IMG/VR virus record: IMGVR_UViG_3300016649_000355
Origin: a virus
Lineage: Duplodnaviria; Caudoviricetes
Reading direction: 5' to 3' (one strand)
DNA length: 64,000 nucleotides
The notes beneath the pieces are model-generated. The model made no database searches. It saw only the letters and a program-made list of their open reading frames with translations, and had not been told where the DNA came from. Every line of letters starts with the position of its first letter. Within the stretch, counting starts at the first letter, position 1. The position numbers were made by a program, and so were the translations under genes. Shown one piece after another: positions 14,485 through 41,811 of this stretch.

Positions 14485-16752
14485 ATGACCAACTCACCCG
14501 AAATTGAAAGCATCATTGAACAGGCTATCATTTTTGCTAAAGATAAAAAACATGAATATTGCACAGTAGAGCATTTATTGCTAGCCCTGGTGAGCCATCC
14601 CCCATTCAAAAAATGCCTTGTGAGTTTTGGTGCTGATATCGAATTGATGATGCAAGATATTAATTCTTACCTTGATAGTCTGCATGCTATTGTGTCTAAC
14701 AAAGAAGAGGTTACTCCTAGAAAAACTAATTCTCTAGAGAGGGTAATGAACAGAACGGTTACTCAGGTATTATTTACCGGGCGTAGACAGGTCACTACAA
14801 TCGATCTCTATCTCAGTATTGCGGCTGAGGGTAACAGTCATGCACATTATTTCTTATTAAAATATGGAATCCACAAAGCAGAATTCTTGACTCATTGGCA
14901 GAAAACATATAAAGGTAGTGAATACACAAATCATCTCACGGAGACACAAGCAGATGAGATCCTTGACGAGAACACGATAAATCTTACAACACTTGCCAAA
15001 CAAGGTAAATTAGAACCGGTCATTGGTCGTTCTTCTGAACTGCAAGATATCGTTAATGTTCTGGCAAAAAGATTTAAATCAAATGTATTGATGGTGGGTG
15101 ATCCGGGGGTGGGTAAGACTGCCATCGTAGAGGGTTTGGCACAACAGATAGTAGAAGACAATGTTCCGGACTTTCTCAAAGATCATGAACTATACTCCCT
15201 AGAGATCGGCGGGTTGCTAGCTGGATCAAAATATCGAGGAGACTTCGAAGAAAAAGTTAAAAATGTAATCGATGCCTTGAACACAAAGAAAAAAGCCATT
15301 TTGTTTATTGATGAAGCTCACACAATGCAGGGAGCAGGCAGTGCTACGAATGGTGCTGTCGATTTTGCTAATATGATTAAACCTGCAATCACAAAGGGAA
15401 CATTAAAGGTTCTTGCAAGTACTACTTGGGAAGAATTTTATGAAAGTTTTGAAAAAGATCGTGCATTGATGCGAAGATTTTACAAGATTTCTATCGATGA
15501 ACCATCTAAAGATTCTACAATCAGAATCTTAAAGGGATTGAGTGTAAGATTGAGCGAGTTCCATGAAGTAGAAATTAATGAGGATGCAATTCTTACCGCT
15601 GTTGAAAAAGCAGACCGTTATATTCAAGATAGAAAGAATCCAGATAAATCTATCGACTTATTGGATGCAGCATGTGCTAAACAAAGGGCGGCTAATAATA
15701 AGGGAGCAGTGATAACAAAGCAGTTGATCAATGAGCAGGTTGAGAAATACACAGGTGTTCCTGCTGATAAATTGAATGGAGATAATCTTGACCGTATCCA
15801 TAATCTTGAAATAAATATCAAGGAAAAACTTTATGGCCAGGATGAAACTGTTGAACAGGTGCTTGAGAGGGTTTATGTGAGTTTTGCAGGTATCGGAACC
15901 GAAACGAAACCAATGTCAAGCTTTTTATTTTTAGGCCCAACAGGTACAGGTAAAACAGAACTTGCAAAGCTATTGAGCAAAAATCTTGACATGCCTTTAC
16001 TCAAATATGATATGAGTGAATATAGTGAAAAACATTCTGTGTCAAGCTTGATAGGTCCGCCCCCCGGTTATGTAGGTTTTAATGATAGTCAAGTTCAAGG
16101 TGGAAGATTGATCAGTGATTTGAGCAAAAGTCCACACTCAATCATGTTGTTTGATGAAGTTGAAAAGGCACATCCTGACATATTTAATATCTTTTTGCAG
16201 ATGTTAGATGAAGGGAGAGTAACTGGCAGTAATGGTAAAGAAGTAAGCTGTAAAAACACGATTATTATTTTGACTTCAAATCTAGGTAGCCAAGATAGCG
16301 AAAAATTAAATATCGGTTTTAGTGATCAGGAGAAAACAGGAGAAGATGATAAAGCATTAAAAGAATTTTTCAAACCTGAATTTCGCAACAGGCTTGATCT
16401 TGTGTGTAAGTTTAAGAAACTAGACATGCTAGCCATCAAAAAGATCGTAATCAAATTTACTGAGGAACTCAAAAAGAGTCTGCTTGAAAAACATAACATC
16501 ACTCTAAATTTAACTGAAAATGTGGTAGAATATCTAGCAGAAAAGGGATATGATAAAAAGATGGGTGCGAGACCACTCGCAAGAAAGATCGACGAATTAA
16601 TACGAGTGCCTTTGAGTAAAAAAATCTTATTTGAAAAAATTAAAAACGCCAATGTTACCGCAAACTTACTTGATGGGAAAATCGATTTTGGAATTCAAAC
16701 AAAATCCACAGGCAAGGTAGGAGAAGATGGAATCATTACAGTTGAAGGTTGA
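14485..16752 (+). CDS. clpA: ClpA-like Hsp100 AAA+ chaperone
   Basis: Clp N domain; two Walker A motifs (GDPGVGKT, GPTGTGKT); PPGYVG; KPEFRNRLD; MGARPL. Confidence 0.92.
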   Translation: MTNSPEIESIIEQAIIFAKDKKHEYCTVEHLLLALVSHPPFKKCLVSFGADIELMMQDINSYLDSLHAIVSNKEEVTPRKTNSLERVMNRTVTQVLFTGRRQVTTIDLYLSIAAEGNSHAHYFLLKYGIHKAEFLTHWQKTYKGSEYTNHLTETQADEILDENTINLTTLAKQGKLEPVIGRSSELQDIVNVLAKRFKSNVLMVGDPGVGKTAIVEGLAQQIVEDNVPDFLKDHELYSLEIGGLLAGSKYRGDFEEKVKNVIDALNTKKKAILFIDEAHTMQGAGSATNGAVDFANMIKPAITKGTLKVLASTTWEEFYESFEKDRALMRRFYKISIDEPSKDSTIRILKGLSVRLSEFHEVEINEDAILTAVEKADRYIQDRKNPDKSIDLLDAACAKQRAANNKGAVITKQLINEQVEKYTGVPADKLNGDNLDRIHNLEINIKEKLYGQDETVEQVLERVYVSFAGIGTETKPMSSFLFLGPTGTGKTELAKLLSKNLDMPLLKYDMSEYSEKHSVSSLIGPPPGYVGFNDSQVQGGRLISDLSKSPHSIMLFDEVEKAHPDIFNIFLQMLDEGRVTGSNGKEVSCKNTIIILTSNLGSQDSEKLNIGFSDQEKTGEDDKALKEFFKPEFRNRLDLVCKFKKLDMLAIKKIVIKFTEELKKSLLEKHNITLNLTENVVEYLAEKGYDKKMGARPLARKIDELIRVPLSKKILFEKIKNANVTANLLDGKIDFGIQTKSTGKVGEDGIITVEG

Positions 16753-21678: not shown

Positions 21679-22422
21679 ATGGAATTACGAGGAGTAAACA
21701 TAACCAATTTAAATATAGTAACCAGTCCCGGGGTAACACCTCCGCCCTCACCAGTGACCACTGGTTTAGTTTTATATTACGATCCAAGCAATAGTTCAAG
21801 TTATTCTGGTAGTGGCACAACAGTCAATAGTCTTGTAAGTCCTAATCTGACAGGTACTATGACTAATATAACTTATACCAGTCCTTACTTTAGTTATAAT
21901 GGTACAAGTTCTACAGTTTCAATAGCAGATAGTGCATCATTAGAACCAGGCTCAGGTGACTTTACTATTGAGGCATGGGTCTATTATACCACTATCACAG
22001 GTAGTAGTCGTGTGATCATGGGCAAAACTAACGGCGGTCTTGCAGCAGATTGGGGATATGGATTGAGAACAGGCAGCAACGGAGCAACTTTCTTTGAAGT
22101 AGGCAACGGAACAACATCAATTCCATCATCTAATTTCACTGCTAGTACTGGACAATGGTATCAGGTAGTGGGTGTATGGACTAATGTAGCATCAAACTCT
22201 ATTGCTCTATATCGGAATGGCACACTCATTGGCAGCAATAGTCATTCATTTGCCAGCGTGAAAGATACCACTAGTCCACTATATCTTGGATCATTCAATG
22301 GTGGTCAATTTTCACAATGGTTGAACGGTCGCACAGGCATCATAAGATACTATAATACTGCACTATCTGGCGCAGATGTATTGCAGAATTTCAACGCAAA
22401 TAAAGCATTATACGGTTTGTAA
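21679..22422 (+). CDS. LamG/concanavalin-A-like lectin domain protein
   Basis: DFTIEAWVY, WYQVVGVW, LYRNG, IRYYNTALS. Confidence 0.8.
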   Translation: MELRGVNITNLNIVTSPGVTPPPSPVTTGLVLYYDPSNSSSYSGSGTTVNSLVSPNLTGTMTNITYTSPYFSYNGTSSTVSIADSASLEPGSGDFTIEAWVYYTTITGSSRVIMGKTNGGLAADWGYGLRTGSNGATFFEVGNGTTSIPSSNFTASTGQWYQVVGVWTNVASNSIALYRNGTLIGSNSHSFASVKDTTSPLYLGSFNGGQFSQWLNGRTGIIRYYNTALSGADVLQNFNANKALYGL

Positions 22423-22460
22423 TAAATCTGATAAATAGTATATAACCACGGAATCGTATC

Positions 22461-23474
22461 ATGAAAATCAATCAAATCACTGAATCAACAACCGCAGGAT
22501 CTATAGCTACAGTTGAAGGGGGTCAGGGCCAAACTCAATATAGAAATCCTAGCATCTATGGATTAACATCCGGTGAGTCTATGCTTAAAGGCAAAAAGAC
22601 TAAAAAGAAATTCGCAAATAGCCTCAATGAGGGCAAAGTCAAAGAACTCATGATGGATTTAGCTAATCCCCCCCGTGGATTGAGTGATGAAGAATTCAAA
22701 AAAGTTTACAAGATGACAAAACAAGAAGCAAGACAACTGATGAAAGTTAACGAACAAGAAGTCAATGAAGCAGATTTGATATTAGTTCCTGGCCAGGGTC
22801 ATAGAATGAAGCCTGGCTTCATCGCTAGAGACATGGATAGAACTGATCGTGAGATAGAGATGGCAAGCGGTGATTTATATCAGGCGGCAAAAAATGCTAA
22901 AATGATCTATGACATGATCAAAGACATTCCCGAAGAGCGTGGATTAGAAGGATGGGTTCAGGAAAAGATCACTAAAGCAGCAGACTATCTAAACACTGTC
23001 CGTGAATACATAGAACAGAAAAGAATGGCAAATGAGAACGGCGGGGTCATCGCAGGATTTGGAATCGCAGAAACGGCTGAGAAAGTATTAAATGACGGCA
23101 TGAAGAATCTCAAGGCAATACACGCTGCAATTGAAAAGGGCGGTGATGCATTGTTTACATTTAATGGTAAATTCAAGGATGTACCTAGCGAGTATTTAAG
23201 GGCATTGCGCGGTACTTATACTGCATCATTGAAAAATGATAGACAACAAGATATGTTAAATATTCTAGGTGATGAAAACAAATTCAACAGATTAATGCAA
23301 CGATTAGACGATGAATTATTTGCTAAGTATCGTGATGTAAGCGAGAGAAAAAAGAATCTTTATCCGATAGGCATGGCACAGGCGATGAAGTCTACAGGTG
23401 ACAAGCCTCCCCTAGAGAAATCAACCATTGTTAAAGCACATGATATCGCTAGATCAATACAGCGCAAGGGTTAA
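22461..23474 (+). CDS. Mosaic putative internal head protein
   Basis: MKINQITE leader; several xNE linkers; GLEGWVQEKITKAADYL module. Confidence 0.6.
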   Translation: MKINQITESTTAGSIATVEGGQGQTQYRNPSIYGLTSGESMLKGKKTKKKFANSLNEGKVKELMMDLANPPRGLSDEEFKKVYKMTKQEARQLMKVNEQEVNEADLILVPGQGHRMKPGFIARDMDRTDREIEMASGDLYQAAKNAKMIYDMIKDIPEERGLEGWVQEKITKAADYLNTVREYIEQKRMANENGGVIAGFGIAETAEKVLNDGMKNLKAIHAAIEKGGDALFTFNGKFKDVPSEYLRALRGTYTASLKNDRQQDMLNILGDENKFNRLMQRLDDELFAKYRDVSERKKNLYPIGMAQAMKSTGDKPPLEKSTIVKAHDIARSIQRKG

Positions 23475-23476
23475 TC

Positions 23477-26254
23477 ATGAGCAAGATCATAGAAGGCATA
23501 CAGTTATCAGAGAAGAAAAAGAAGCCAAAGCCAACCAGCCCCGAAAAATGGTCTAGAGCTAAAGCAAAAGCCCGAAGCAAGTTCGATGTATATCCTTCAG
23601 CATATGCTAATGCTTATGCTGCTAAAGAATACAAAAAAATGGGCGGTGGCTGGAGAATGGGCGAAAGCACTGAAGAAGTTGATGAAAGTGCATTACAGGC
23701 ATATCTAGGTAATAAAAAATATGGTAAAGACGGCATGAATGCTCTGAGAAGGGCAGGCCGTGAAGGTGCTAGCAGAGAACAAATGGCAAAAATTCGGGAC
23801 AGATATAATAAGTTGGACGAGGAAATAATCACACAAAAAACGATACACGATTTAGCAGATAGCAGAGGAATCAAATGGGACAATGAACCCAGTTTTTTGA
23901 GATTGACCAAAAGGCTGACAGGCAAAGAACATCTAGATCAACTTAATCAAGAAGAGTTGATAAAAATCAAAAAATATCTTGAAAATCAAGGTGTGGCGGA
24001 AGGCTTAACGGAAGCTAGAGACAGTTTGTTTGCCTTTGTGAAGCGACATTTTCCAACTTGGCCTGACTATGTGTTGAAAGACTTCTTGTATTCACAAGCC
24101 AAGGGCATTCGTGATCAGGCAGAGTTAGATGATTTTCTTAAAAGAAACAAACAAGACTTTGGCGATTGTAAATGGACACTAACTAAATTGCCCATAACCT
24201 TTGATATCTTTACACCCAAGACTCAGCGTATGCTTGCCAGTAGAGAAGGCGGTAGTTCTAATCCTTTTCAAGTACCGCGTGATGCTGAAAGACACGCATT
24301 GCAATCACAAATGATACAGCAAAAGGGTGTGAGTGCAGAACCAATTATTGTTGCCAAATTGTCCAACGGCTATGATTTGATCGAAGGTTGGCATAGAACT
24401 ATTCAGCATTTGAAGGCATTCCCTCAAGGATACACTGGTCCTGCTTGGGTATGCACCGGAGCCACATACAAAAGTGAAAGTGTCAGGCAAGGTGTGGCGG
24501 AAGACTTGTTAGCAGAGATGGATAAAAGTGCTCCGCAACCTGGTCGTGATGGTCGAGTAAGTCACAGCACCTATGGATCCAGAGATAAAGGTGGTAGTAA
24601 AGGACCTGAAAAAGAAGCCAAACCAATCACAGCAAAAAAAGCTAAACAAGCCGCACTTGATATACTGAAGAAACAAGGTGTGGCGGAAGGCTCATTAGAT
24701 GAAATCAACCGTAGAGGATTCTTGAAAGGCTTAGGTGCGGCGGCTGTGGCAGGTGCGGCTGGTGGTGCTAAGGCTGATAGATTTTGGCAACAAGATGAAC
24801 TAACAAAACAATTTAAAGGCCAAATGACTTCTGAAACATTTAATGGAGCAGTTATACATTGGGATGAAGAACGAAAGATTGCTAGTCTAGCATTAACTCA
24901 ACCTACTAATTTTAGTATTAATAATGTTAAACAGAATAGATTATATTTTCCAAAGTTTACATCAACTAACTTTATTATAAAAATAGGCGAAAATTCTCCA
25001 TTAAATGGTACCGGAACTCCTTATCAATTTCCTTTAAGGCAGTTAGGTGATTATGAAGGTAACGGATTAATAATTTTACGCGGCAATCAATTTACTAAGG
25101 TTAGAGAAGATTTTATCAATGCAGATAAAGTTCTCATCAGAGTAGAGGTCGATGGCCTTCCAACTACAATGACATTTCATGACAATCTAGGATACATTCA
25201 GCAAAGACAGACACAACGAAAACAACCAATTTTAGATAAAATTTATCAAGAAGAAAAAAAAGGTAGCACTGTGTCTGGGTTTCATGGAATATATTCTGCT
25301 ATTCAATTAAGATCAATACTAGAACCCTTTAAAGATCAAATTCCTGGACAGTTTGAACTGTTGGATCAGGAAATTAATACTTTACTTTCTAACACACAAG
25401 GACACCAGATTGCTAAAGACATTGAAGAACAAATAAAAAAAGATAAATCTCTTAAAGACCTTATTAAAAGTGACGAAAAATATAAACATCTGTTAGTCAG
25501 CGATGCTGAGACTGCTAATCGTTGGCTCGCATCAGTTTACGGAAAGGTAATGATAAGATTAAAAGAATATAACACCATGCTGAGTCAGATTAAAGAAAGC
25601 GTTGAGCAAGGTGTCTCGGAAGGCTCATTAGATGAAAATTGGAAAAATAAACTAGCTGCTGGGGCATTATCCGCTGCAATGGGATTAGGCGCGATGGGAG
25701 CAGCCAATGCTCAGAATGTAAAACAAACTGATCTAGGAAATGACTTTGTATCTACCTCGATAGAAGTTGCCGGTCACAATTTAAATGCTGTATATGATGA
25801 TGTGACTAAAACATATTTCACGCTCAACAAGAATCCAAATACTGGTTATTCAATATACAAGACTCCGGCCCGTTATATAGCAATTAAAAATGGAAAAGTA
25901 GAACCAATGTCAAAACTTGGTCCAAAAACACTTGACGCAATGAGTAAAGCAGGATTAGAAAATGATGTAAAAGAAGATACCACCATGCGATTCGCAGCAG
26001 AAAAATTACCGGCACAAAATCCCTACGGTGGAGTAAAGGATAGACAATTTCGTGGCGCGATAGCAGAGACAGAAGCAGTGAATCGCAATGACGGTGATGG
26101 CTGGCGCTGGTATGAACCCCGCGAACAAGAACAATTAGATGAATTGAAATGCTGGCCCGGTTACACTAGGGTCAAGGGAGTGCCTGCAGGCGCAGTTGGT
26201 AGCTGCAAAAAGAAGACCAAAGAAAGCTCTATCATGAAGGGCTTGCAGAAATGA
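23477..26254 (+). CDS. Mosaic polyprotein (basic module, ParB-like module, Tat- and Sec-like signal-bearing modules)
   Basis: QGV(A/S)E linkers; PIIV...YDLIEGWHR (ParB-like); NRRGFLK (Tat motif). Confidence 0.65.
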   Translation: MSKIIEGIQLSEKKKKPKPTSPEKWSRAKAKARSKFDVYPSAYANAYAAKEYKKMGGGWRMGESTEEVDESALQAYLGNKKYGKDGMNALRRAGREGASREQMAKIRDRYNKLDEEIITQKTIHDLADSRGIKWDNEPSFLRLTKRLTGKEHLDQLNQEELIKIKKYLENQGVAEGLTEARDSLFAFVKRHFPTWPDYVLKDFLYSQAKGIRDQAELDDFLKRNKQDFGDCKWTLTKLPITFDIFTPKTQRMLASREGGSSNPFQVPRDAERHALQSQMIQQKGVSAEPIIVAKLSNGYDLIEGWHRTIQHLKAFPQGYTGPAWVCTGATYKSESVRQGVAEDLLAEMDKSAPQPGRDGRVSHSTYGSRDKGGSKGPEKEAKPITAKKAKQAALDILKKQGVAEGSLDEINRRGFLKGLGAAAVAGAAGGAKADRFWQQDELTKQFKGQMTSETFNGAVIHWDEERKIASLALTQPTNFSINNVKQNRLYFPKFTSTNFIIKIGENSPLNGTGTPYQFPLRQLGDYEGNGLIILRGNQFTKVREDFINADKVLIRVEVDGLPTTMTFHDNLGYIQQRQTQRKQPILDKIYQEEKKGSTVSGFHGIYSAIQLRSILEPFKDQIPGQFELLDQEINTLLSNTQGHQIAKDIEEQIKKDKSLKDLIKSDEKYKHLLVSDAETANRWLASVYGKVMIRLKEYNTMLSQIKESVEQGVSEGSLDENWKNKLAAGALSAAMGLGAMGAANAQNVKQTDLGNDFVSTSIEVAGHNLNAVYDDVTKTYFTLNKNPNTGYSIYKTPARYIAIKNGKVEPMSKLGPKTLDAMSKAGLENDVKEDTTMRFAAEKLPAQNPYGGVKDRQFRGAIAETEAVNRNDGDGWRWYEPREQEQLDELKCWPGYTRVKGVPAGAVGSCKKKTKESSIMKGLQK
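23987..24006 (+). repeat. Linker repeat copy 1 (QGVAEG)
   Basis: CAAGGTGTGGCGGAAGGCTT. Confidence 0.9.
24488..24505 (+). repeat. Linker repeat copy 2 (QGVAED)
   Basis: CAAGGTGTGGCGGAAGAC. Confidence 0.9.
24674..24704 (+). repeat. Linker repeat copy 3 (QGVAEGSLDE)
   Basis: CAAGGTGTGGCGGAAGGCTCATTAGATGAAA. Confidence 0.9.
25607..25637 (+). repeat. Linker repeat copy 4 (QGVSEGSLDE)
   Basis: CAAGGTGTCTCGGAAGGCTCATTAGATGAAA; 29/31 identical to copy 3. Confidence 0.9.
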
Positions 26255-26655
26255 GAGACTTGCTTGACATATTAGAAGCAGTTGAGAAAGGTTGCCCTCC
26301 CGCCACACAGAATATCGATCTCAACTTGCGCAATAGGCAAAAAGCCATCGATGAATATCATTATGGTCCACTAAATCCCAATGAACCCAACGATGAGTAT
26401 TGGCAAGAACTAGCAGATAAATGGAATACCGATGACATCGAAAGCGTGAAAAAGAATCGTTGCGGAAATTGTGCTGCATTTGACATAAGCGAGGATATGT
26501 TAGATTGTATAGCCAAAGGTATAGGCAGCGAGCCGGGAAGTGACCCACATGATACTATAGACGCCGGACATCTTGGATATTGTAAATTCTTGAAATTCAA
26601 ATGCGCAGCCAAAAGAACATGTGATGCCTGGGTAGAAGGTGGACCAATAACATGA
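26251..26655 (+). CDS. Cys-rich hypothetical protein, possible internal head protein
   Basis: MRDLLDILE leader; CGNC...C...C....TC pattern. Confidence 0.6.
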   Translation: MRDLLDILEAVEKGCPPATQNIDLNLRNRQKAIDEYHYGPLNPNEPNDEYWQELADKWNTDDIESVKKNRCGNCAAFDISEDMLDCIAKGIGSEPGSDPHDTIDAGHLGYCKFLKFKCAAKRTCDAWVEGGPIT

Positions 26656-27980
26656 GAGCAGATGAATTTATAAGTGAAGGCTCTTATCAAGGTGGGCTAC
26701 GCAAGTGGTTTAAAGAAAAGTGGGTAAATCTAGCTAAGAAGAAAAAGGGCGGTGGGTATGAACAATGTGGTTCTAGCGGTGACACCAAGGGATATGCGAA
26801 GTGTGTACCAGCAGCCAAAGCTGCAAGAATGTCAGACAAAGAAGAAAAGTCAGCTATCAATAGGAAGCGTTCAGCACAGCGCAAAGCAGGTAGACCCGGC
26901 AAACGATCCGGGGGTAAAGGCAAAACTCCAATCTTTGTCAAGACAAAGGTAAAAGAGGGCACCGATCAAGAGTTTTATACAGGTGGGGCATTAGGCTTGC
27001 CCTATCCTGGTACATATGAGCAAGAGAATGAACCGTTTAAAACTAAAGGTCAAAGAAGGATGGGTACATTGACCACAGAAGAAAGATATAAAGGCAATCT
27101 AGGATTAATGGAGTTGATAGCTTTCTTCAAGCAACATCCCGAACTATTGAAACAATTCAATGAGATTAAAAAAGAATATGGTGCTGAAAAATCATTGGAA
27201 TTCGCGTTACAACATATCAATAAAACATTAGAACCAGTATTGCAGGAAGGCATCAATGATCCATCAATTTTCAAGGTAGTGTTCGTTGTGGGAGGCCCGG
27301 GCAGCGGAAAAAGTTATGTATCTAGGCAGCTTGGATTAAATGCTATGGGATTAGTAACAATCAACAGCGACCATGCTTTTGAATATTTGATGCAAAAACA
27401 GGGCCTCGACTTGAAAATGCCACCAGAGGAAGAAATAGAACGAGACATAGTTCGAAATAGGGCGAAAGAAATAGTCAATAAAAAATCTGATTTAGCGATA
27501 GATGGAAGACTAGGATTACATATAGATGGTACTGGTTCTGATTTCACAAAGGTACAAAATCTAAAAAATAATTTTGACATGTTGGGCTACGATAGTTATC
27601 TGATTATTGTCAATACAAAGCTCGATGTGGCAAGATCGAGAAATCAATCAAGAAAAAGAAGTGTGCCAAATGATCTTTTGACTAAACGCTGGCGTGATGT
27701 GCAGAATAATATTGGTCGTTTCGCAGAGATATTTCCAAGATTCAGCATCATCGACAACAGTGGCGATATAAATAATACCGATTCACAGATCAACAAAGTA
27801 TATACAAGATTAGTTAAATTTTTAAACGAACCCCCCACAAAACCTATTGCTAGAAAATGGATAGAAGATCATAAATCTCAGGTGAACGAAAAGTGGTCAG
27901 AAAAATATAAGCGCAGCATAGATTGTAGTAATCCAAAAGGATTTAGCCAGAGGGCACATTGTCAAGGACGGAAAAAGTAA
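26652..27980 (+). CDS. Mosaic protein with P-loop kinase (zeta-toxin/AAA_33-like) module
   Basis: MRADEFISE leader; basic Cys module; VGGPGSGKS, IDGTG, ARSRNQSR. Confidence 0.7.
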   Translation: MRADEFISEGSYQGGLRKWFKEKWVNLAKKKKGGGYEQCGSSGDTKGYAKCVPAAKAARMSDKEEKSAINRKRSAQRKAGRPGKRSGGKGKTPIFVKTKVKEGTDQEFYTGGALGLPYPGTYEQENEPFKTKGQRRMGTLTTEERYKGNLGLMELIAFFKQHPELLKQFNEIKKEYGAEKSLEFALQHINKTLEPVLQEGINDPSIFKVVFVVGGPGSGKSYVSRQLGLNAMGLVTINSDHAFEYLMQKQGLDLKMPPEEEIERDIVRNRAKEIVNKKSDLAIDGRLGLHIDGTGSDFTKVQNLKNNFDMLGYDSYLIIVNTKLDVARSRNQSRKRSVPNDLLTKRWRDVQNNIGRFAEIFPRFSIIDNSGDINNTDSQINKVYTRLVKFLNEPPTKPIARKWIEDHKSQVNEKWSEKYKRSIDCSNPKGFSQRAHCQGRKK

Positions 27981-28423
27981 TGTTATCAGATACACTTAAA
28001 ACACTATTAGCAACAAGTTATGGATTTGCTATCAAGGCACAGAACTTTCACTGGAATGTTGAAGGTCCAGACTTTCCACAGTATCATGAATTCTTTGGAG
28101 AAATATATCAAGAAGTTTTCGATAATGCCATCGATCAAACTGCTGAGTATATAAGAACGCTTGGAAGCTATACTCCGGGTAGTTTCACGAGGTTGCACGA
28201 ATTATGCCAGATAGAAGATCAACTCAAGATTCCTAGGGCAGAACTGATGTTCGCTGAATTAGAGCAAGACAATCAAAAGTTATTAGACATGTTGAAGCAA
28301 GCCTTTCACATAGCTGAAGAAAGTGATGAGCAAGGCATAGCAAATTTCATCGCCGAGAGAATCGATGCGCATGCCAAACATGGCTGGATGTTGAGAGCAA
28401 CATTAAATAAAGCTAGGGCATAA
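27980..28423 (+). CDS. dps: Dps/ferritin-like protein
   Basis: NFHWNVEGPDFPQYHEFF, DQTAEYIRTLG, HAKHGWML. Confidence 0.9.
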   Translation: MLSDTLKTLLATSYGFAIKAQNFHWNVEGPDFPQYHEFFGEIYQEVFDNAIDQTAEYIRTLGSYTPGSFTRLHELCQIEDQLKIPRAELMFAELEQDNQKLLDMLKQAFHIAEESDEQGIANFIAERIDAHAKHGWMLRATLNKARA

Positions 28424-28437
28424 GATAAATATTCTCT

Positions 28438-29124
28438 ATGCGTATTATAGAGATATGTGAGTCTATAGAAGAGGCTGAGAAAGACACGGATGAGTCTAAC
28501 GAGATCGTAAAAGTTTTTAAACAAAACGGATACAATCAGGTAGGTTCAGGTGCTGACGCTACTGTATGGGCTAAAGATGCGGGCAGCGTGATAAAGATAT
28601 TGATGCCTGACAGCGAGGATATAACAAAAGCAGCATTTACTTTCAAGAAGTTCTATACATTTTGTAAGAACAATGAGAGTGTTGCCTGCTTGCCTAAATT
28701 TATTCCTATACAAGGAAAAGACTATCAATCTTTTCAGCTTGGTACTAAAAAGTATTTGCAAATATCAATGGAAGAGTTGAGACCTATTCCAACACTTTCG
28801 TTTGATGAAGGTATAGTGTGGTTTTTTAGTGATTTTGTGATACATGATACCCGTTGGGATGATGTCAATAAAAAATTATTGAATGCAAGGATCTGGGCAG
28901 ATCACAACTGGAAGCAATCTGAACAGTATGCTGAACAATGGAAAAATCTTACTATAGAAAAAAGAATGGAATATCGGATATTATACATGACTATGAATCT
29001 GTTATACAAGACAGGTAAGATCAATAAATTAGGTTGGGATCTGCATACTGAAAATGCCATGATGCGCGGTGATACAATCGTTATCACTGACCCATGGTTT
29101 GAAAGATATTCAGGATCATTATGA
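28438..29124 (+). CDS. Protein kinase-like fold protein
   Basis: VGSGADATVW, VIKIL, ISMEEL, WDLHTEN, ITDPW. Confidence 0.7.
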   Translation: MRIIEICESIEEAEKDTDESNEIVKVFKQNGYNQVGSGADATVWAKDAGSVIKILMPDSEDITKAAFTFKKFYTFCKNNESVACLPKFIPIQGKDYQSFQLGTKKYLQISMEELRPIPTLSFDEGIVWFFSDFVIHDTRWDDVNKKLLNARIWADHNWKQSEQYAEQWKNLTIEKRMEYRILYMTMNLLYKTGKINKLGWDLHTENAMMRGDTIVITDPWFERYSGSL

Positions 29125-29654
29125 GAGTCAACGAAGCTAGCCCCGATACATTTGAAGGTAGTTTGAGTGATGATCAATTGATCAGCCGTTTATGGATGGC
29201 TAAACGATTGAATGACACCGGCATTCCCGTGAAAAAATGTGTAGTTCTAGGAAGCTGGTACGGCCTAGTTCCCTATATATTAAGAAAGATCAATCGCATC
29301 CCAACAATAGTGGCTATTGATGGAAATCAAAAATATATAGATGCTAGCAAGAAACTCAATCCACACATCAAGCATTTATGTAAAGATGTGAACGACATGC
29401 ATTATCATGGTGCTGATTGTGTGGTAAACCCCAGCATCAATAATATAGCGGGCACTAAATGGTATGAGAACATACCTATGGGCAAGTTATGTTTATTTCA
29501 GACTGAAGACATAGAAGTAGAAAAAAACTGTCCTTCTAATTTAGAAGAATTAAAAACTAAGTTCCCATTAAGTAAATACTTGTATGAAGGAACATTGAGT
29601 TGCAAAGATAAGGATGGGCCTTATACAAGAAGTATGATCATAGGAATAAAATGA
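29121..29654 (+). CDS. Class I SAM methyltransferase-like protein
   Basis: VVLGSWYG, VAIDGN, CKDVN Rossmann pattern. Confidence 0.55.
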   Translation: MRVNEASPDTFEGSLSDDQLISRLWMAKRLNDTGIPVKKCVVLGSWYGLVPYILRKINRIPTIVAIDGNQKYIDASKKLNPHIKHLCKDVNDMHYHGADCVVNPSINNIAGTKWYENIPMGKLCLFQTEDIEVEKNCPSNLEELKTKFPLSKYLYEGTLSCKDKDGPYTRSMIIGIK

Positions 29655-30361
29655 AATTATTTACTAATGGATGTAGTTGGACTTACGGAGGAGGCCTTGA
29701 TTTGGATCAGCCTTACCAAGAGGCTGAAAGATTAAAGGTTGTGTGGCCTCACCATTTGGGAAAGTTATTAAATACTGATCAGGTAGTAAATCTAGCAATG
29801 GGGTGCGGAAGTAATCAAAGAATGATAAGAACGACATTTGATTGGTTACTTACTCAAACAAAACAAGAACTCGCAGATACAATAGCAGTGATTCAATTTA
29901 CAGAACCTAGTAGATTTGAAATAAATTACGAAAATGACTGGTATAATTGCAAGATAGGATGTGTTACATTTGGAGACAATCGTGTAGCTAATACACATGA
30001 AGAAAATTTTAAAGTTCAGGAAATGTATAGTCTAGTAGAATCTAGATTTGTAACATACTCGGATGTAGAAGGTGACTACTCATTATTGTCTTCAGCTACA
30101 TCTATAGATAACTTATTTAAACAATTTCATTTAAAAGATTGGTATTTTTGGTCTTTTAGTAATGATTTCATGCGCAGTAAATATAAAGAGTATTATTGCA
30201 ATAATTTTAAAATAGTTGATAAACAATATATGACAGATTTATGGAAGTATTCAAGGGTAGGAATAAAATTTTTTAATCAAGAATTTGATCCACATCCTAG
30301 TATCGAGGGACATCGGCAAGTTGCAAACGCATTATTTCATGAAATGGGAACATACAAATGA
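29651..30361 (+). CDS. SGNH hydrolase-like protein (paralog family)
   Basis: TNGCSWTYG, NLAMGCGSN, HPSIEGH. Confidence 0.6.
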   Translation: MKLFTNGCSWTYGGGLDLDQPYQEAERLKVVWPHHLGKLLNTDQVVNLAMGCGSNQRMIRTTFDWLLTQTKQELADTIAVIQFTEPSRFEINYENDWYNCKIGCVTFGDNRVANTHEENFKVQEMYSLVESRFVTYSDVEGDYSLLSSATSIDNLFKQFHLKDWYFWSFSNDFMRSKYKEYYCNNFKIVDKQYMTDLWKYSRVGIKFFNQEFDPHPSIEGHRQVANALFHEMGTYK

Positions 30362-30789
30362 AAAAAATATTAGCAATAGTTTTACTATCACTAACCAGTA
30401 TCGCACACGCACAGAAACAGGGGGTAACATATGATGCACAAATTCTTAGGGTTAACGATGGAGATACGGTCGTTATTTCTGCTCCATTTTTACCTGCTCC
30501 GCTAAAACCAGAACTTGCCGTGAGAATATATGGGGTAGACACACCTGAAAAGGGTTTCCGCGCACAGTGTCCCCAAGAAGATGCTAGGGGAAAGGCTGCT
30601 AGTGAATTCACTAAGAAAGCGGTAGCCGGGGCGCAGAAAAGACAAGTTGTTTTAATGGACTGGGATAAGTTCGGCGGTCGCGTGTTAGGCGACATTATCT
30701 TAGATGGTGTGAGCCTTAGAGAAATGCTAATCAAAAATAACATGGCCCGAGCATACTTCGGCGAAGCGAAACAAAGCTGGTGCAATTGA
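30358..30789 (+). CDS. Secreted thermonuclease (SNase family)
   Basis: Signal peptide; RVNDGDT, RIYGVDTPE, DKFGGRVLG. Confidence 0.9.
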   Translation: MKKILAIVLLSLTSIAHAQKQGVTYDAQILRVNDGDTVVISAPFLPAPLKPELAVRIYGVDTPEKGFRAQCPQEDARGKAASEFTKKAVAGAQKRQVVLMDWDKFGGRVLGDIILDGVSLREMLIKNNMARAYFGEAKQSWCN

Positions 30790-30802
30790 TAAATATTTAA
30801 TC

Positions 30803-31498
30803 ATGCGAGCCACTGAGTTTTTAATAGAAAAAAATAGAAAAAGAAAGCGCACAAAATTGCGCAAATACTTTTTTCCTGGTTTTGCCTATTACGGAGGTTA
30901 CGGTGGTGAAGATTCAGGTGGTGATGGCGGAGGCGGAGAAAGCATGTATGAAAGTGCTGTCGATGAGCTAAAGCAGCAGCTACCATCACTTAAAAAACAT
31001 GACTATGATACAATCGATAGACTCATGAGAGGTATAGCGAAAAAACACAAGATCACAGGAAAAGCACTACATGATCTATTTGTTAACAAATATAAAAAGA
31101 CCCCGGATGACTGGATAAAAAATAAATTAGACGAACAGCTAGACCTTGATATGGTCGGGGAAGTGGAGAAATTCAGCGACTGGGCCTGTAAAAAATTGAA
31201 TGTACAGAACCAACCCAGGATCAATTTAAGTTACGATACAGAAGAGGCGCAGACAAATCATCACACCGGGGGGCATGTAATGGGTGACGATGAGATTTGG
31301 GTATACGCTAAAAATCGCAATTTAGTCGATATATTGAGGACTGTGTTCCATGAATTGGTTCATGTGAGGCAGGAAGAATTGAACATGATCAAGCATGGTT
31401 CAAGTTATCCCGGAAGCCCCATCGAAGCGATGGCAGACATGCTTGCGGGCAAATACATCAAGATTTACGGCAAAGATAATCCAAAAATATTCCAATAA
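30803..31498 (+). CDS. Mosaic protein with HExxH metallopeptidase-like module
   Basis: MRATEFLIE leader; Gly-rich linker; VFHELVHVRQ...EAMA. Confidence 0.6.
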   Translation: MRATEFLIEKNRKRKRTKLRKYFFPGFAYYGGYGGEDSGGDGGGGESMYESAVDELKQQLPSLKKHDYDTIDRLMRGIAKKHKITGKALHDLFVNKYKKTPDDWIKNKLDEQLDLDMVGEVEKFSDWACKKLNVQNQPRINLSYDTEEAQTNHHTGGHVMGDDEIWVYAKNRNLVDILRTVFHELVHVRQEELNMIKHGSSYPGSPIEAMADMLAGKYIKIYGKDNPKIFQ

Positions 31499-31552: not shown

Positions 31553-31813
31553 ATGTCTGAACGAACCTTTTCTGCCGAAGGCAAACTTAAACTTACCCAA
31601 TTAGTCAACGAAGGCATGTCAGTCATGCATGAGATCGAAACATTGCAGGGTGGATTGAATGATACGATCAAGGCAGTAGCAGAAGAAATGGAAATCAAAC
31701 CGAGTATTTTAAAGAAAGCCATCAAAATCGCATACAAATCTGGTCTAGGTCAGACCAACAAAGAACACGAAGAACTAAACACGATTCTGGAGACTGTTGG
31801 TAAGACCCTATGA
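31553..31813 (+). CDS. Small dsDNA-binding protein (T4 DsbA/GapR-like)
   Basis: SD GGAG; helical IKAVAEEMEIKPSILKKAIKIAY pattern; sigma70-like promoter at about 31503-31531. Confidence 0.5.
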   Translation: MSERTFSAEGKLKLTQLVNEGMSVMHEIETLQGGLNDTIKAVAEEMEIKPSILKKAIKIAYKSGLGQTNKEHEELNTILETVGKTL

Positions 31814-34521
31814 GTTATGTAGACGCTATTCACGACCGTGATAGTGACAGGATCTTTGTAGTTGAAAGAACTACAGAAGGCAAACGAACATATAAAGAAT
31901 ATCCTGCAAACTATGTCTTCTATTACAGCGATCCTAAAGGTAAATTTCGCAGTATCTATGGCGATAATGTTAGTCGTTTTTCAACAAGGAAGCGCGCCGA
32001 ATTTGAGAAAGAGCGGCGGATACACTCCGGTAAGAAGTTATACGAGAGCGACATCAATGTTGTCTTCCGTTGCCTCAGCGAAAATTATCTAAATATCGAT
32101 CCTCCCCAATTACATACTTGCTTCTTTGACATTGAGGTAGATTTTGACCCCGAGAAAGGTTTCAGCCCAACAAATGATCCTTTCAATCCAGTCACTGCTA
32201 TTTCACTATATCTTGACTGGCAAGATCAACTGATCACATTGTGTTTGAAGCCAAAACACATGAGTGTTGAGACTGGTCGTGAAATTGCAGAAGAATTTGA
32301 GAACTGCATACTATGTGATGATGAAGAATCAATGTTCAAGATATTCTTCCAACTCATCGAAGATAGTGATGTATTGACTGGCTGGAACTCAGAGGGGTAC
32401 GACATACCCTACATGGTCAATCGTGTGACACGGGTATTGAGCAAGGATGATACACGCAAGTTCTGTCTACTCGGTCAATTGCCCAGAGCCCGTGAATACG
32501 AAAGATTTGGTAAAACTGAGACAACATATGACTTAGTTGGTCGCATTCACATGGACTATCTACAGTTGTACAAGAAGTATAACTATGAGAGTCGCCACAG
32601 TTATAAGCTAGACTTCATCGGTGAGATGGAAGTAGGTGAGAACAAAACGCAATATGAAGGCACATTGGATCAATTGTATAACAAGGACTTCAAAAAGTTC
32701 TTAGAATATAATCGACAGGATACGATGTTGCTTGTCAAGATACACAACAAACTCAAATTCCTCGATCTTGCTAACGCACTGGCACATGAAAATACTGTAT
32801 TGCTTCCAACAGTCATGGGTTCTGTAGCAATGATCGAAATGGCGATCATGAATGAAGCGCATGAGCGCGGTATGGTGGTTCCCGATAAAAAACGAAAGGA
32901 AGCAAACGGTGATGAACAACAAGCGGCAGGTGCCTATGTTGCTACGCCCAAAAGGGGCATACATGAGTGGGTCGGAGCAGTGGATATCAACTCGCTCTAT
33001 CCCTCGACTATTAGAGCCCTCAACATGGCTCCCGAGACAATCGTTGGACAAGTCAGACAAACACTCACCGAACAGTACATGCACGACAAAGGGAGACGGC
33101 TGGCTAGCGAAAAAAAGCGGAGCAAAGACGGGGACGAAGAAGTAACTGGATCAATATTATGGGAAGGATTGTTTGGTAGCTTAGAATACACTGCCATCAT
33201 GAATCAAGAGCGCGGGACTACATTGATCCTAGACTACGAGGATGGACGCAGTGTTGAGATGAGTGCTGCCGAACTATGGAAATTGATCTTTGATAGTCAC
33301 AAGCCCTATATGTTGTCAGCGAACGGGACGATATTCACTTACGAGACTGAGGGCGTGATTCCTGGATTGTTGTCTAAGTGGTATAGTGATCGTAAAGTCA
33401 TGCAACAAAAATTAAAAGAATCAACAACGCCGGAAGATAGGGAATACTGGGATAAGCGTCAGTTGGTTCGTAAGATTTTGCTCAACTCAGCATATGGTGC
33501 GTTGTTGAATGAGCATTGTCGTTTCTATGACAAACGGATCGGCCAAAGCGTTACATTGACTGGCAGGCAGATCGTGAAACACATGATGAGTACTATCAAT
33601 GAAACTGTAGCGGGTGTCTATACGCATGACGGTGATGCCATCGTCTACGGTGATACTGATAGTTGTTATTTCAGCGCGTATCCGATATTGAAGTCTCAGA
33701 TAAACAATGGCGAATTAGAATGGAATAAAGAAGTCTGTATCGGATTGTATGACAGTATCGCTGAACAGGCTAATCAAAGTTTCCCAGCTTTCCTCGAAAA
33801 AGCCTTTCATGCTCCTAGAAAGAATGGGGAGATCATCAAAGCAGGTCGTGAATTGATCGGTGATAGAAGTTTGTTCATCACGAAAAAACGATATGCGATC
33901 AATATCTTTGACAAAGAAGGCAAACGAAAAGACACGAAGGGCAAGATGGGAGATATCAAGGCAATGGGCCTCGATCTCAAGAGGGCGGATACTCCCAAAT
34001 ATGTTCAAGAATTCTTGATGTCTGTATTAGAAATGGTTCTGTCTGGTAAAGGCCGTGACGATGTGATTGAAAAGATCAAGGACTTCAAGATCGAATTGGG
34101 CAAACAAGATAGCTGGACTAAAGGTAGTCCTAAATCTGTCAATAAGTTGACATACTATGGTGATCTAGAAGCCGGTAGCAAGACGGGTAGAGCAAACATG
34201 CCGGGTCATGTGAGGGCAGCATTGAACTATAATTATCTGCGCCGTGTGAATAGCGACAACTATTCTATGAAAATTGTTGACGGCATGAAGGTCATCGTAT
34301 GTAAATTGAAACAAAATCCATTAGGATTTACTAGTGTTGCTTATCCAACAGACGAACTTAGATTGCCCCAATGGTTCTGTGATCTGCCATTCGATGATCA
34401 AGAAATGGAAAGAACATTGGTTGACGAGAAGATCGAAAACTTATTGGGTGTGCTTGGTTGGGACCTGCGCAGTAATACCGATACCAATTCAACATTTGAT
34501 GATCTGTTTAGTTTCGGTTAA
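31810..34521 (+). CDS. gp43: Family B DNA polymerase (gp43-like)
   Basis: FDIEVD exonuclease motif, DINSLYPS, KILLNSAYG, YGDTDS, KKRYA. Confidence 0.96.
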   Translation: MSYVDAIHDRDSDRIFVVERTTEGKRTYKEYPANYVFYYSDPKGKFRSIYGDNVSRFSTRKRAEFEKERRIHSGKKLYESDINVVFRCLSENYLNIDPPQLHTCFFDIEVDFDPEKGFSPTNDPFNPVTAISLYLDWQDQLITLCLKPKHMSVETGREIAEEFENCILCDDEESMFKIFFQLIEDSDVLTGWNSEGYDIPYMVNRVTRVLSKDDTRKFCLLGQLPRAREYERFGKTETTYDLVGRIHMDYLQLYKKYNYESRHSYKLDFIGEMEVGENKTQYEGTLDQLYNKDFKKFLEYNRQDTMLLVKIHNKLKFLDLANALAHENTVLLPTVMGSVAMIEMAIMNEAHERGMVVPDKKRKEANGDEQQAAGAYVATPKRGIHEWVGAVDINSLYPSTIRALNMAPETIVGQVRQTLTEQYMHDKGRRLASEKKRSKDGDEEVTGSILWEGLFGSLEYTAIMNQERGTTLILDYEDGRSVEMSAAELWKLIFDSHKPYMLSANGTIFTYETEGVIPGLLSKWYSDRKVMQQKLKESTTPEDREYWDKRQLVRKILLNSAYGALLNEHCRFYDKRIGQSVTLTGRQIVKHMMSTINETVAGVYTHDGDAIVYGDTDSCYFSAYPILKSQINNGELEWNKEVCIGLYDSIAEQANQSFPAFLEKAFHAPRKNGEIIKAGRELIGDRSLFITKKRYAINIFDKEGKRKDTKGKMGDIKAMGLDLKRADTPKYVQEFLMSVLEMVLSGKGRDDVIEKIKDFKIELGKQDSWTKGSPKSVNKLTYYGDLEAGSKTGRANMPGHVRAALNYNYLRRVNSDNYSMKIVDGMKVIVCKLKQNPLGFTSVAYPTDELRLPQWFCDLPFDDQEMERTLVDEKIENLLGVLGWDLRSNTDTNSTFDDLFSFG

Positions 34522-41139: not shown

Positions 41140-41811
41140 ATGTATAAATTATATAAAATAACCAATACAGTAAACGGAAAACTGTATATCGGTATTACAA
41201 AATTACCCATACAACAGCGGTGGGCTAAACATCTAAAAGATTCACTTTTTCCCAAATATCCACTACATCATGCGATAAACAAATACGGGAAAGAAAACTT
41301 CATTGTAGAATTGTTAGAAGAATCAATCGACCGAGCATATATAAGCAATCTAGAAGAACCGTCAATACTAAAATATAATAGTAGAAATAACGGATATAAT
41401 GTTGCTAAGGGCGGATATGGCGGTGATTTAGGTACTGAAGCAAGAGCAAAAAGTTTAGAAACAATAAAAAATTGGTCCGATGAGAAGAAAGCGGAACATA
41501 AGCAAAAACTACATGAAAGAAATTTAGGCAAAACAAAGTACAACGATTTAGGCAGATTGCATCAGTCAGAAAAAATAAAAGGTAATACTTTTAGAAAAGG
41601 AATACCGCATGATACTGAGGTTAAACAAAAGATATCGTCAAAAAATAAAGGAAAAATTCGTTCCGAACAATCTAGACTAAAGTATAGAAATAGTGCTAAA
41701 CTAAGAGGAACAGGCCCGCAGTTACAAGGTAAAAAAGTTGGTTGTATCTGCTGCCAAAAAGAATGGGATTTAGGTAATTTTTCACAACATATAAAAAGGA
41801 AGTCATTATGA
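41140..41811 (+). mobile_element. Free-standing GIY-YIG homing endonuclease (seg-like)
   Basis: LYKITNTVNGKLYIGIT, NGYN, NUMOD3-like HxxExKQKIS. Confidence 0.88.

Follow-up and report, generated by a model that had tools for sequence, protein, structure and literature searches.

An in-frame DNA word marks module boundaries in a putative capsid-cargo polyprotein of a giant T4-superfamily phage

Why does one short DNA repeat recur four times in the same frame of a single viral gene, with its silent sites conserved? This question is raised by the open reading frame (ORF) P0001 (925 amino acids (aa); 23477–26254, plus strand), which starts 3 nt past the stop of the upstream ORF in the Caudoviricetes record IMGVR_UViG_3300016649_000355 of IMG/VR. 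The DNA analysed, here called the window, is a stretch of 64,000 nucleotides (64 kb). An earlier interpretation made from its letters and ORFs (the sequence-only reading) had taken the repeat for a recombination joint and a cleavage site in one element, dividing a polyprotein into swappable cassettes. In this study, the repeat (hereafter the linker) was shown to be a module boundary that also delimits the stretches of DNA homology shared between phages. We consider it fairly probable, judging from the sequences compared, that P0001 is a capsid-cargo polyprotein of the kind known as ‘polyvalent proteins’, encoded by a giant T4-superfamily phage, and that the linker would serve as protease site and as short-homology crossover point.

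The linker follows the consensus CAAGGTGT(GG/CT)CGGAAG. The pattern CAAGGTGTSBCGGAAG matched the window exactly four times, always on the plus strand (starts 23987, 24488, 24674, and 25607). In 100 dinucleotide shuffles the expected number of matches was 0.01 and no shuffle reached four; a chance repeat was rejected on this basis and on the in-frame recurrence of the linker across related contigs. The first three copies are identical (CAAGGTGTGGCGGAAG), whereas the fourth is a variant (CAAGGTGTCTCGGAAG). The copies lie 501, 186, and 933 nt apart, each distance being divisible by 3, and copies 3 and 4 are identical at 29 of 31 nt. All four share the frame of P0001 and encode, in order, QGVAE-G, QGVAE-D, QGVAE-G, and QGVSE-G. 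The window is AT-rich (GC content 32–43%). The copy number, the spacings in multiples of 3, the identity of three copies over their first 16 nt, the 29/31 match, and the AT-rich composition had all been described in the sequence-only reading, and all were reproduced here.

In a search of related genomes, more than 120 IMG/VR phage contigs (a lower bound) were found to contain the exact 16-mer, often with two to four copies per locus. Among the matches listed, about 170 of 175 were in frame as CAA GGT GTG GCG GAA G inside ORFs of 100–1570 aa; the few exceptions came from GC-rich contigs and seem to match by chance. The 16-mer was surrounded by 216 distinct flanking contexts, which were unrelated to each other, and the information content reached background within about 20 nt, leaving the conserved core (A)AG CAA GGT GTG GCG GAA GGC. 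The linker was confined to one to three loci per genome of 260–525 kb. Assembly chimeras at the repeat were considered and rejected: they are unlikely because 16–18 nt is shorter than the k-mers used by assemblers and because the same architectures were recovered from independent samples (P0024–P0031; L213 and L214, where L numbers denote loci).

Conservation of the linker was found to extend to its codons. Within 121 related ORFs, 211 of the 250 GVAE peptides were encoded as GGT GTG GCG GAA, and when one ascertaining copy per ORF was left out, the exact 12-mer was still present in 90 of 129. Background codon use (GGT.445, GTG.177, GCG.071, GAA.80) predicts 0.45% for this 12-mer; GTG (18%) and GCG (7%) are rare codons in the background use of linker-bearing ORFs. 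An independent sample of six loci, reached via protein homology to cassette 2 (the module between copies 1 and 2) and not via the DNA word, contained the exact 12-mer in 12 of 17 GVAE linkers, the remaining five each being one base off. The most variable position was the first nucleotide, where change is non-synonymous (Q to E/K), and the wobble sites varied less. Natural variants of the peptide comprised GVAE, GMAE, GIAE, GVTE, and GVSE, and variant linkers were single steps toward common codons, not toward other rare codons. As a control, residues 13–62 of the same ORF showed 96–98% protein identity to relatives, but retained the same codon at only 41% of the conserved degenerate residues. 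Since the codons are fixed in the linker and not in the control peptide, the conservation is not merely at amino-acid level. Thus, the synonymous-site conservation pointed out in the sequence-only reading holds, and much more strongly than had been described there.

Further comparison showed what happens at the linker. Cassette 2 was 97.3% identical on DNA level to a segment of L121 (window 23981–24504), 89% to L016 (24000–24507), and 88% to L002 (23988–24503), while the core genes of those loci were only 64–78% identical. In each case the homology began and ended at linkers and the neighbouring modules differed per locus: copy 1 (23987–24002) formed the left edge of the homology to L121 and L002, and copy 2 (24488–24503) the right edge of that to L121, L002, and L016. 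With all loci taken together, high-identity high-scoring segment pairs had 36% of their ends at most 5 nt from a linker, compared with 1.3% of random positions, and breakpoints were found at 138 of the 144 junctions having an informative homologue elsewhere. Among 107 locus pairs, the shared modules exceeded the flanking genes in similarity by at least 10 percentage points in 26, and the opposite was seen in one pair only. A linker-bounded insertion or deletion of a cassette distinguished L013 from L052, and linker-bounded replacements were found in the pairs L005/L107, L026/L116, and L039/L048. In the syntenic locus L133, both end modules of P0001 were kept (91 and 73% protein identity), but in a 372-aa ORF with just 11 residues between them, so that the approximately 800 linker-bearing residues in between are either an insertion relative to the L133 phage or a deletion in L133. 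This comparison shows the linker to be a module boundary at which inter-phage DNA homology starts and stops, and therefore that modules are gained, lost, and replaced there. The division of the ORF into swappable modules had been anticipated by the sequence-only reading, and the order of the modules was found to vary among relatives, with different neighbours, insertions or deletions, and replacements.

What kind of phage uses such a joint? P0001 gave no match to 50,697 isolated phage records by megablast and tblastn. The only link of the window to isolated relatives was the family-B DNA polymerase at 31810–34521, which showed 42–49% aa identity to those of Sinorhizobium phage Phosso, Agrobacterium phage Atu_ph07, and the 121Q group, all giant T4-superfamily phages of 350–490 kb. 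Besides, many IMG/VR contigs were syntenic with the window, with a DNA identity of 64–78% for the core genes, and their records reach 260–525 kb.

In the chains of these phages, unrelated small modules are fused in frame by a standard joint, (K/E)-Q-G-V-A-E/G (the slash marking the proposed cut), encoded by about 18 fixed nucleotides (CAA GGT GTG GCG GAA GGC). We propose that an N-terminal leader would steer the chain to the prohead core, where a prohead protease of the T4 type (Peptidase_S77) would cut after the Glu of V-A-E and at nearby L-x-E sites, and the modules would then be released as separate small proteins and injected with the DNA. The fixed DNA word would at the same time offer a patch of short homology at which the general recombination machinery (UvsX/RecA-like) could make in-frame crossovers, between co-infecting phages or between copies. 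As frame, cut site, and word would all be regenerated by each crossover, recombining linkers would stay uniform, and a new cassette could do without its own promoter, ribosome-binding site, and start codon.

The protease gp21 of T4 cuts after Glu in L/I-X-E, and cleavage after Glu is a hallmark of the prohead protease family (PMC9026906). The internal proteins of T4 carry a 10-residue N-terminal capsid-targeting sequence (CTS), which is removed by gp21 (PMC9026906; PMC3012670; PMC12373910). In nearly all linker variants, the Glu was retained and P3 was hydrophobic (V/I/M); V-A-E fits the hydrophobic-x-Glu rule, and a second L-(D/N/E)-E site often follows 4–5 residues past the linker. By its sequence pattern, the N-terminus of P0001 (MSKIIEGIQLSE; 23477–23512) resembles the T4 leader, with about 10 residues ending in hydrophobic-x-Glu, here L-x-E. 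Hydrophobic-x-Glu at residues 7–12 was present in 59% of linker-bearing ORFs with a complete start and in 18% of the others (odds ratio 6.6, p 1e-14). Stand-alone homologues of cassette 2 open with the leaders MRATEFIVE, MRAQEFITE, and MRISEILNE, and the end of the stand-alone leader (L-T/N-E) coincides exactly with the start of cassette 2 in P0001.

The surroundings of P0001 point the same way. On the plus strand at 22461–31498, just upstream of the DNA polymerase, a block of ORFs opens with the leaders MKINQITE, MSKIIEGIQLSE, MRDLLDILE, MRADEFISE, MRIIEICE, and MRATEFLIE. The block is syntenic with variable regions in relatives and is probably a cargo (internal-protein) locus. In three of five related long records, Peptidase_S77 scored above cut-off beside a gp22-like scaffold gene and the gp23 capsid gene, and the scaffold in those records is rich in L/V/M-x-E sites. 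Every requirement of the T4 system that can be read from sequence appears to be present, and the linker is probably a cut site for a prohead protease of the T4 type. The candidate protease site that the sequence-only reading saw in QGVAE is strengthened by the fit of V-A-E to the hydrophobic-x-Glu rule and by Peptidase_S77 in relatives.

The protease rule demands neither Q-G-V-A-E-G nor its codons, and therefore something acts on the nucleotides. General recombination is the agent favoured here: a recombinase of the RecA/UvsX type was found in four of the five related records, and T4 has been reported to use homology patches of less than 50 bp (PMC2839356). Of the double role proposed in the sequence-only reading, the joint is supported by the breakpoints at the linker; cleavage, and the mechanism by which the joint recombines, are deduced from comparison.

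Several points weigh against this explanation. Cleavage, packaging, and recombination all rest on comparative inference. The gene for a prohead protease was absent from the window by tblastn and present in only three of the five related records. Hydrophobic-x-Glu suffices for the protease, so that a strict Q-G-V-A-E-G exceeds what cleavage needs, and a word of 16–18 nt offers little length for homologous recombination to work efficiently. The share of breakpoints did not differ between exact and mutated linkers (47% vs. 50% exact), so that a promoting effect of exactness on exchange is not shown by these data. Finally, cassettes 4 and 5 open with segments resembling twin-arginine (Tat) and Sec signals, which is odd for proteins matured in a capsid and fits release in the cytoplasm better.

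The strictness of the word could alternatively reflect a dedicated site-specific cassette system, in which a nuclease or recombinase of the phage recognises the 16–18 nt and brings about circle excision, insertion, or homing. The element is discrete, about 18 nt long with sharp edges and background on both sides, its conservation is stricter than cleavage or microhomology seems to need, and it is limited to the few loci per genome mentioned above. Homing-endonuclease-like genes are also common (beside the capsid gene in L154 and L156, and at 41140–41811 in the window). However, no Phage_integrase or Resolvase match was obtained in the five related records, two of which are at least 99% complete, in a search where all 14 Phage_integrase controls were positive. 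The word was without dyad symmetry or hairpin (no self-complementary word of at least 4 nt; fold -2.2 kcal/mol), and a PHROGs scan of the ten ORFs around the locus revealed no consistently adjacent enzyme gene. Such a system is considered unlikely, and we give the same low credence to a word that is dual-coded, as a DNA site for a dedicated phage enzyme and as a protein cut site. If true, such a ‘protein-level integron’ would allow giant phages to take up injected cargo against host defences and to express it with no need for promoters, ribosome-binding sites, or start codons.

Taken literally, the integron-like array of the sequence-only reading was not borne out, as there was no tyrosine or serine recombinase in the five related records, no integrase among the ten PHROGs-scanned ORFs around the locus, and no dyad symmetry, and as the array lies inside an ORF and not behind attI and Pc. 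The comparison with integrons is a functional analogy only: both add promoter-less cassettes, bounded by a recurring site, to an expressed array, but here no IntI-type recombinase was found in the five related records, the site is not folded like attC, and the cassettes are joined as protein in one ORF.

Slightly less credible than a dedicated enzyme is a linker that is not cut at all, so that P0001 would act as an intact multidomain polyvalent protein with QGVAEG as a flexible spacer and with DNA uniformity arising from recombination. Some polyvalent proteins are transferred in full length (PMC5512222), P0001 is without a peptidase domain, and cleavage of the chain is deduced from its sequence. 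On the other hand, the invariant Glu, the hydrophobic P3, the second L-x-E site, the CTS-like leaders, and the T4-type protease in relatives all match the substrate rule, and the same modules occur as stand-alone genes with a leader ending exactly at the cassette start.

It is improbable that the linker is cut by a cytoplasmic protease of the host or phage in place of the prohead protease, which would yield many small intracellular or exported proteins from one start codon. The Tat-type signal (25.1 bits vs. a cut-off of 22.7) and the Sec-like signal of P0001 would work N-terminally only after cleavage in the cytoplasm, and a large AAA+ protease-like gene (14485–16752) is syntenic with loci in relatives. 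Signal-like starts were nevertheless found in only 3 of 235 modules, and the leaders and stand-alone homologues indicate capsid targeting. To our knowledge, AAA+ proteases are not sequence-specific endopeptidases. Glu cutting, moreover, is a hallmark of the prohead protease family (PMC9026906). The gene at 14485–16752 encodes a 755-aa protein with two AAA+ domains that matches phrog_4871, ‘ATP-dependent protease’ (E 3e-233), and its synteny is with the cargo loci of L047, L057, L075, L095, L108, and L121.

Very improbable is a role in RNA or translation (ribosome pause, Shine-Dalgarno-like AGGUG, internal start, or RNA-processing site) as the source of the silent-site conservation: GTG and GCG are rare in these genes and AAGGUG could, as reasoned from its sequence, pair with the 16S 3′ end, but a start codon at a usable spacing is lacking (only 1 nt separates the in-frame GTG from AAGG, and copy 4 does not have this GTG; the ATG that follows copies 3 and 4 is in another frame, with ORFs of 7–8 codons), for which reason an internal translation start or Shine-Dalgarno function was rejected, and conserved flanks or structure were lacking, an Rfam scan of 22000–28000 (E up to 0.1) gave no match, linker variants move stepwise to common codons, and the homology breaks at the word would be left unexplained.

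How does a capsid-cargo polyprotein with a double-purpose linker relate to known systems? The T-even internal proteins (IPI, IPII, IPIII, and Alt) are likewise small, diverse, and non-essential cargo with a leader of about 10 residues cut by gp21 after hydrophobic-x-Glu, and the leaders MRATEFLIE and MRADEFISE of the window and MKTYQFITE of L104 resemble the T4 leader. Repoila and co-workers reportedly proposed in 1994 that conserved flanking sequences mediate the shuffling of internal proteins. These proteins are injected with the DNA and are encoded in hypervariable loci (PMC9026906; PMC3012670; PMC12373910). Unlike them, the cargo described here is fused in frame, in chains of up to 1570 aa whose cleavage and packaging we infer; the repeat is an internal linker and not an N-terminal leader or intergenic repeat, and it is fixed at silent sites despite the 64–78% identity of the core genes.

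Polyvalent proteins (Iyer et al., 2017; PMC5512222) also combine many unrelated small enzymatic or binding domains in one chain, and their injection along with the DNA has been predicted (PMC5512222). Chains related to P0001 share with them ParB, GNAT, deaminase, Polbeta NTase, Amidoligase_2, ART-PolyVal, and GH19/SLT/LysM domains. Processing of polyvalent proteins has been proposed to occur mainly via embedded zincin-like peptidases, and recombinational variability was raised only as a possibility (PMC5512222). In contrast, an embedded processing peptidase (zincin-like MPTase or assemblin-like), which is common but not obligatory in the class, was not found in P0001, and a linker is mentioned neither by Iyer et al. 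(2017; PMC5512222) nor in the later jumbo-phage survey by the same group.

The closest precedent for the upkeep of the word is offered by the promoter-early stem-loop (PeSL) cassettes, in which short conserved motifs flank variable genes and recombination deletes, inserts, or replaces modules and makes mini-circles (PMC2839356; PMC4122927); the machinery is suspected to be the general one acting on short homologies (PMC2839356). In both systems recombination would occur between copies flanking variable modules. PeSLs are, however, intergenic and regulatory, consisting of a sigma-70-like early promoter and a terminator hairpin, and each of their cassettes is its own transcription unit, whereas the joint of P0001 lies within coding sequence, is in frame (about 170 of the 175 matches listed), measures 16–18 nt, and has no hairpin, with each cassette lying within a shared polypeptide. 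The glycine-rich motifs of the T-even adhesin gp38 (PMC3157838) are conserved in-frame motifs between swappable hypervariable segments of one ORF as well, but they form the core of one folded domain in a fixed order, whereas the modules of P0001 and its relatives are autonomous, unrelated, and free in number and order.

The literature searched, which covered polyvalent proteins, jumbo phages, and cleavage motifs, contained no account of a linker of this type, and a literature search for QGVAE gave alpha-synuclein among the matches listed and none on phages. A standard joint fixed at DNA level appears to be undescribed. What distinguishes it would be the single dual-purpose joint inside an ORF, which unites traits of the T4 internal proteins, the polyvalent proteins, and the PeSL type. 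It would explain the assembly and fast reshuffling of the large repertoires of proteins that giant phages inject, probably factors against host defences and for host takeover, and expression, capsid loading, release, and recombination would all be solved by one joint. The old idea that conserved ‘linker’ sequences drive modular phage evolution is made directly testable. The single 16-mer is a handle for harvesting hundreds of uncharacterised cargo modules from metagenomes, and a natural protease-resolved, recombination-ready polyprotein format could help to load proteins into phage capsids.

P0001 consists of five or more mutually unrelated modules, most of them without a Pfam family match, and no peptidase domain was detected in it by Pfam or PHROGs. 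The leader is followed by a basic N-terminal end module (residues 10–67; 23504–23677), which showed 91% protein identity to residues 20–77 of the L133 ORF and 91–96% aa but only 78–85% nt identity to many viral contigs. Linker copy 1 (QGVAE/G) leads into cassette 2 (residues 176–337; 24003–24487), identified by its linker-bounded DNA homology and a structure model, and copy 2 (QGVAE/D) into cassette 3 (24504–24673), a short Lys-rich module of about 57 aa in the ORF translation. The related family of cassette 3 was present at six loci, with four left and four right neighbour families. Copy 3 and its extension (24674–24704), QGVAE/GSLDE, contain the second L-x-E site, and GSL(D/N/E)E recurs after the linker in many loci. 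Cassette 4 (24690–25606) opens with a segment resembling a Tat signal (24701–24763) and is otherwise without a known family; scanned alone, it matched Pfam TAT_signal at the score given above, and the DNA matches of L078 and L104 span the linker and this signal segment. Copy 4 with its extension (25607–25637), the variant QGVSE/GSLDE, is followed by cassette 5 and the C-terminal end module (25623–26254). These comprise a hydrophobic, Gly/Ala-rich, signal-peptide-like segment (25640–25711), a sub-module shared with L048 (25971–26055), and the end motif CWPGY...SCKKK (26093–26224); residues 873–916 showed 73% identity to residues 89–136 of the L133 ORF.

The Tat-like start after linker 3 reads NRRGFLKG followed by an Ala/Gly-rich stretch, and the Sec-signal-like start after linker 4 ends in A-N-A/Q. 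Hydrophobic starts like that of cassette 5 were found in modules of L018 and L116, signal-like starts being rare overall (see above). After a cut at the linker, these segments would become N-terminal export signals, which hints either that some injected modules are bound for the periplasm or that cutting is cytoplasmic.

The structure of cassette 2 was predicted with a pLDDT (predicted local distance difference test) of 88.9, and the top Foldseek matches of the model were almost all of the ParB/sulfiredoxin (Srx) fold, though weak (best E 3.9e-3). A cassette 2 profile searched against the sequences of the Protein Data Bank (PDB) gave only noise, and Pfam gave no match for cassette 2 and seven stand-alone homologues. 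An E-G-W-H-R-T motif was invariant. Homologues were found in well over a hundred proteins of 154–1852 aa, with 70–95% protein identity and at any position in the chain, as well as in the form of stand-alone genes. The chains sharing cassette 2 carry GNAT, dCMP deaminase, GH19+LysM, SLT, ParB, Polbeta NTase, Amidoligase_2, sigma-70 region 4, and ART-PolyVal domains, and an HExxH motif is present in the last module of the L002 chain. In total, the 150 loci analysed contained 410 modules, divided into 182 families, of which 143 were singletons.

Small, very basic conserved units were observed within P0001 (...PSAYANAYAAKEYKKMGGGW, 23504–23677; ...CWPGYTRVKGVPAG..SCKKK, 26093–26224) and downstream of it (...KWFKEKWVN...YAKCVPAAKA..., 26652–26960). 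They are free-standing or fused in many viral contigs, with more than 90% protein identity and only about 80% DNA identity, and a related unit in L002 matches DUF6321. These units may be DNA-binding internal proteins. In the ORF upstream of P0001 (22461–23474), F-G-I-A-E-T (23061–23072) occupies the place where the homologue at L133:6364–7146 has E-G-V-A-E-G, and this resembles a linker copy, in a different cargo gene, that has decayed or was never standardised.

Further motif and word comparisons concerned other genes and genomes. By N-terminal motif, GIY-YIG homing endonuclease-like ORFs were called at 41140–41811 in the window and at L154:2669–3646, and an HNH motif at L156:2633–3376; those of L154 and L156 directly adjoin the major capsid gene. 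A search of 185,579 prokaryote genomes with the 18-mer CAAGGTGTGGCGGAAGGC yielded 56 matches and no host clue. Most matches were single and in high-GC actinomycetes, the word being found as one copy per genome in about 14 genomes of Nonomuraea and several of Micromonospora (L157–L201), which suggests a conserved high-GC actinomycete gene containing it by chance; these matches are probably unrelated to the phage linker. A few short contigs of lake metagenome-assembled genomes with the 18-mer resemble mis-binned phage, for example L202 with three copies. In the 524-kb record G001, to which L071 belongs, linker copies were found at both extreme ends (524058–524453 and 11486), the L071 ORF lying near the contig end, a placement that would fit an assembly with circular permutation or terminal redundancy.

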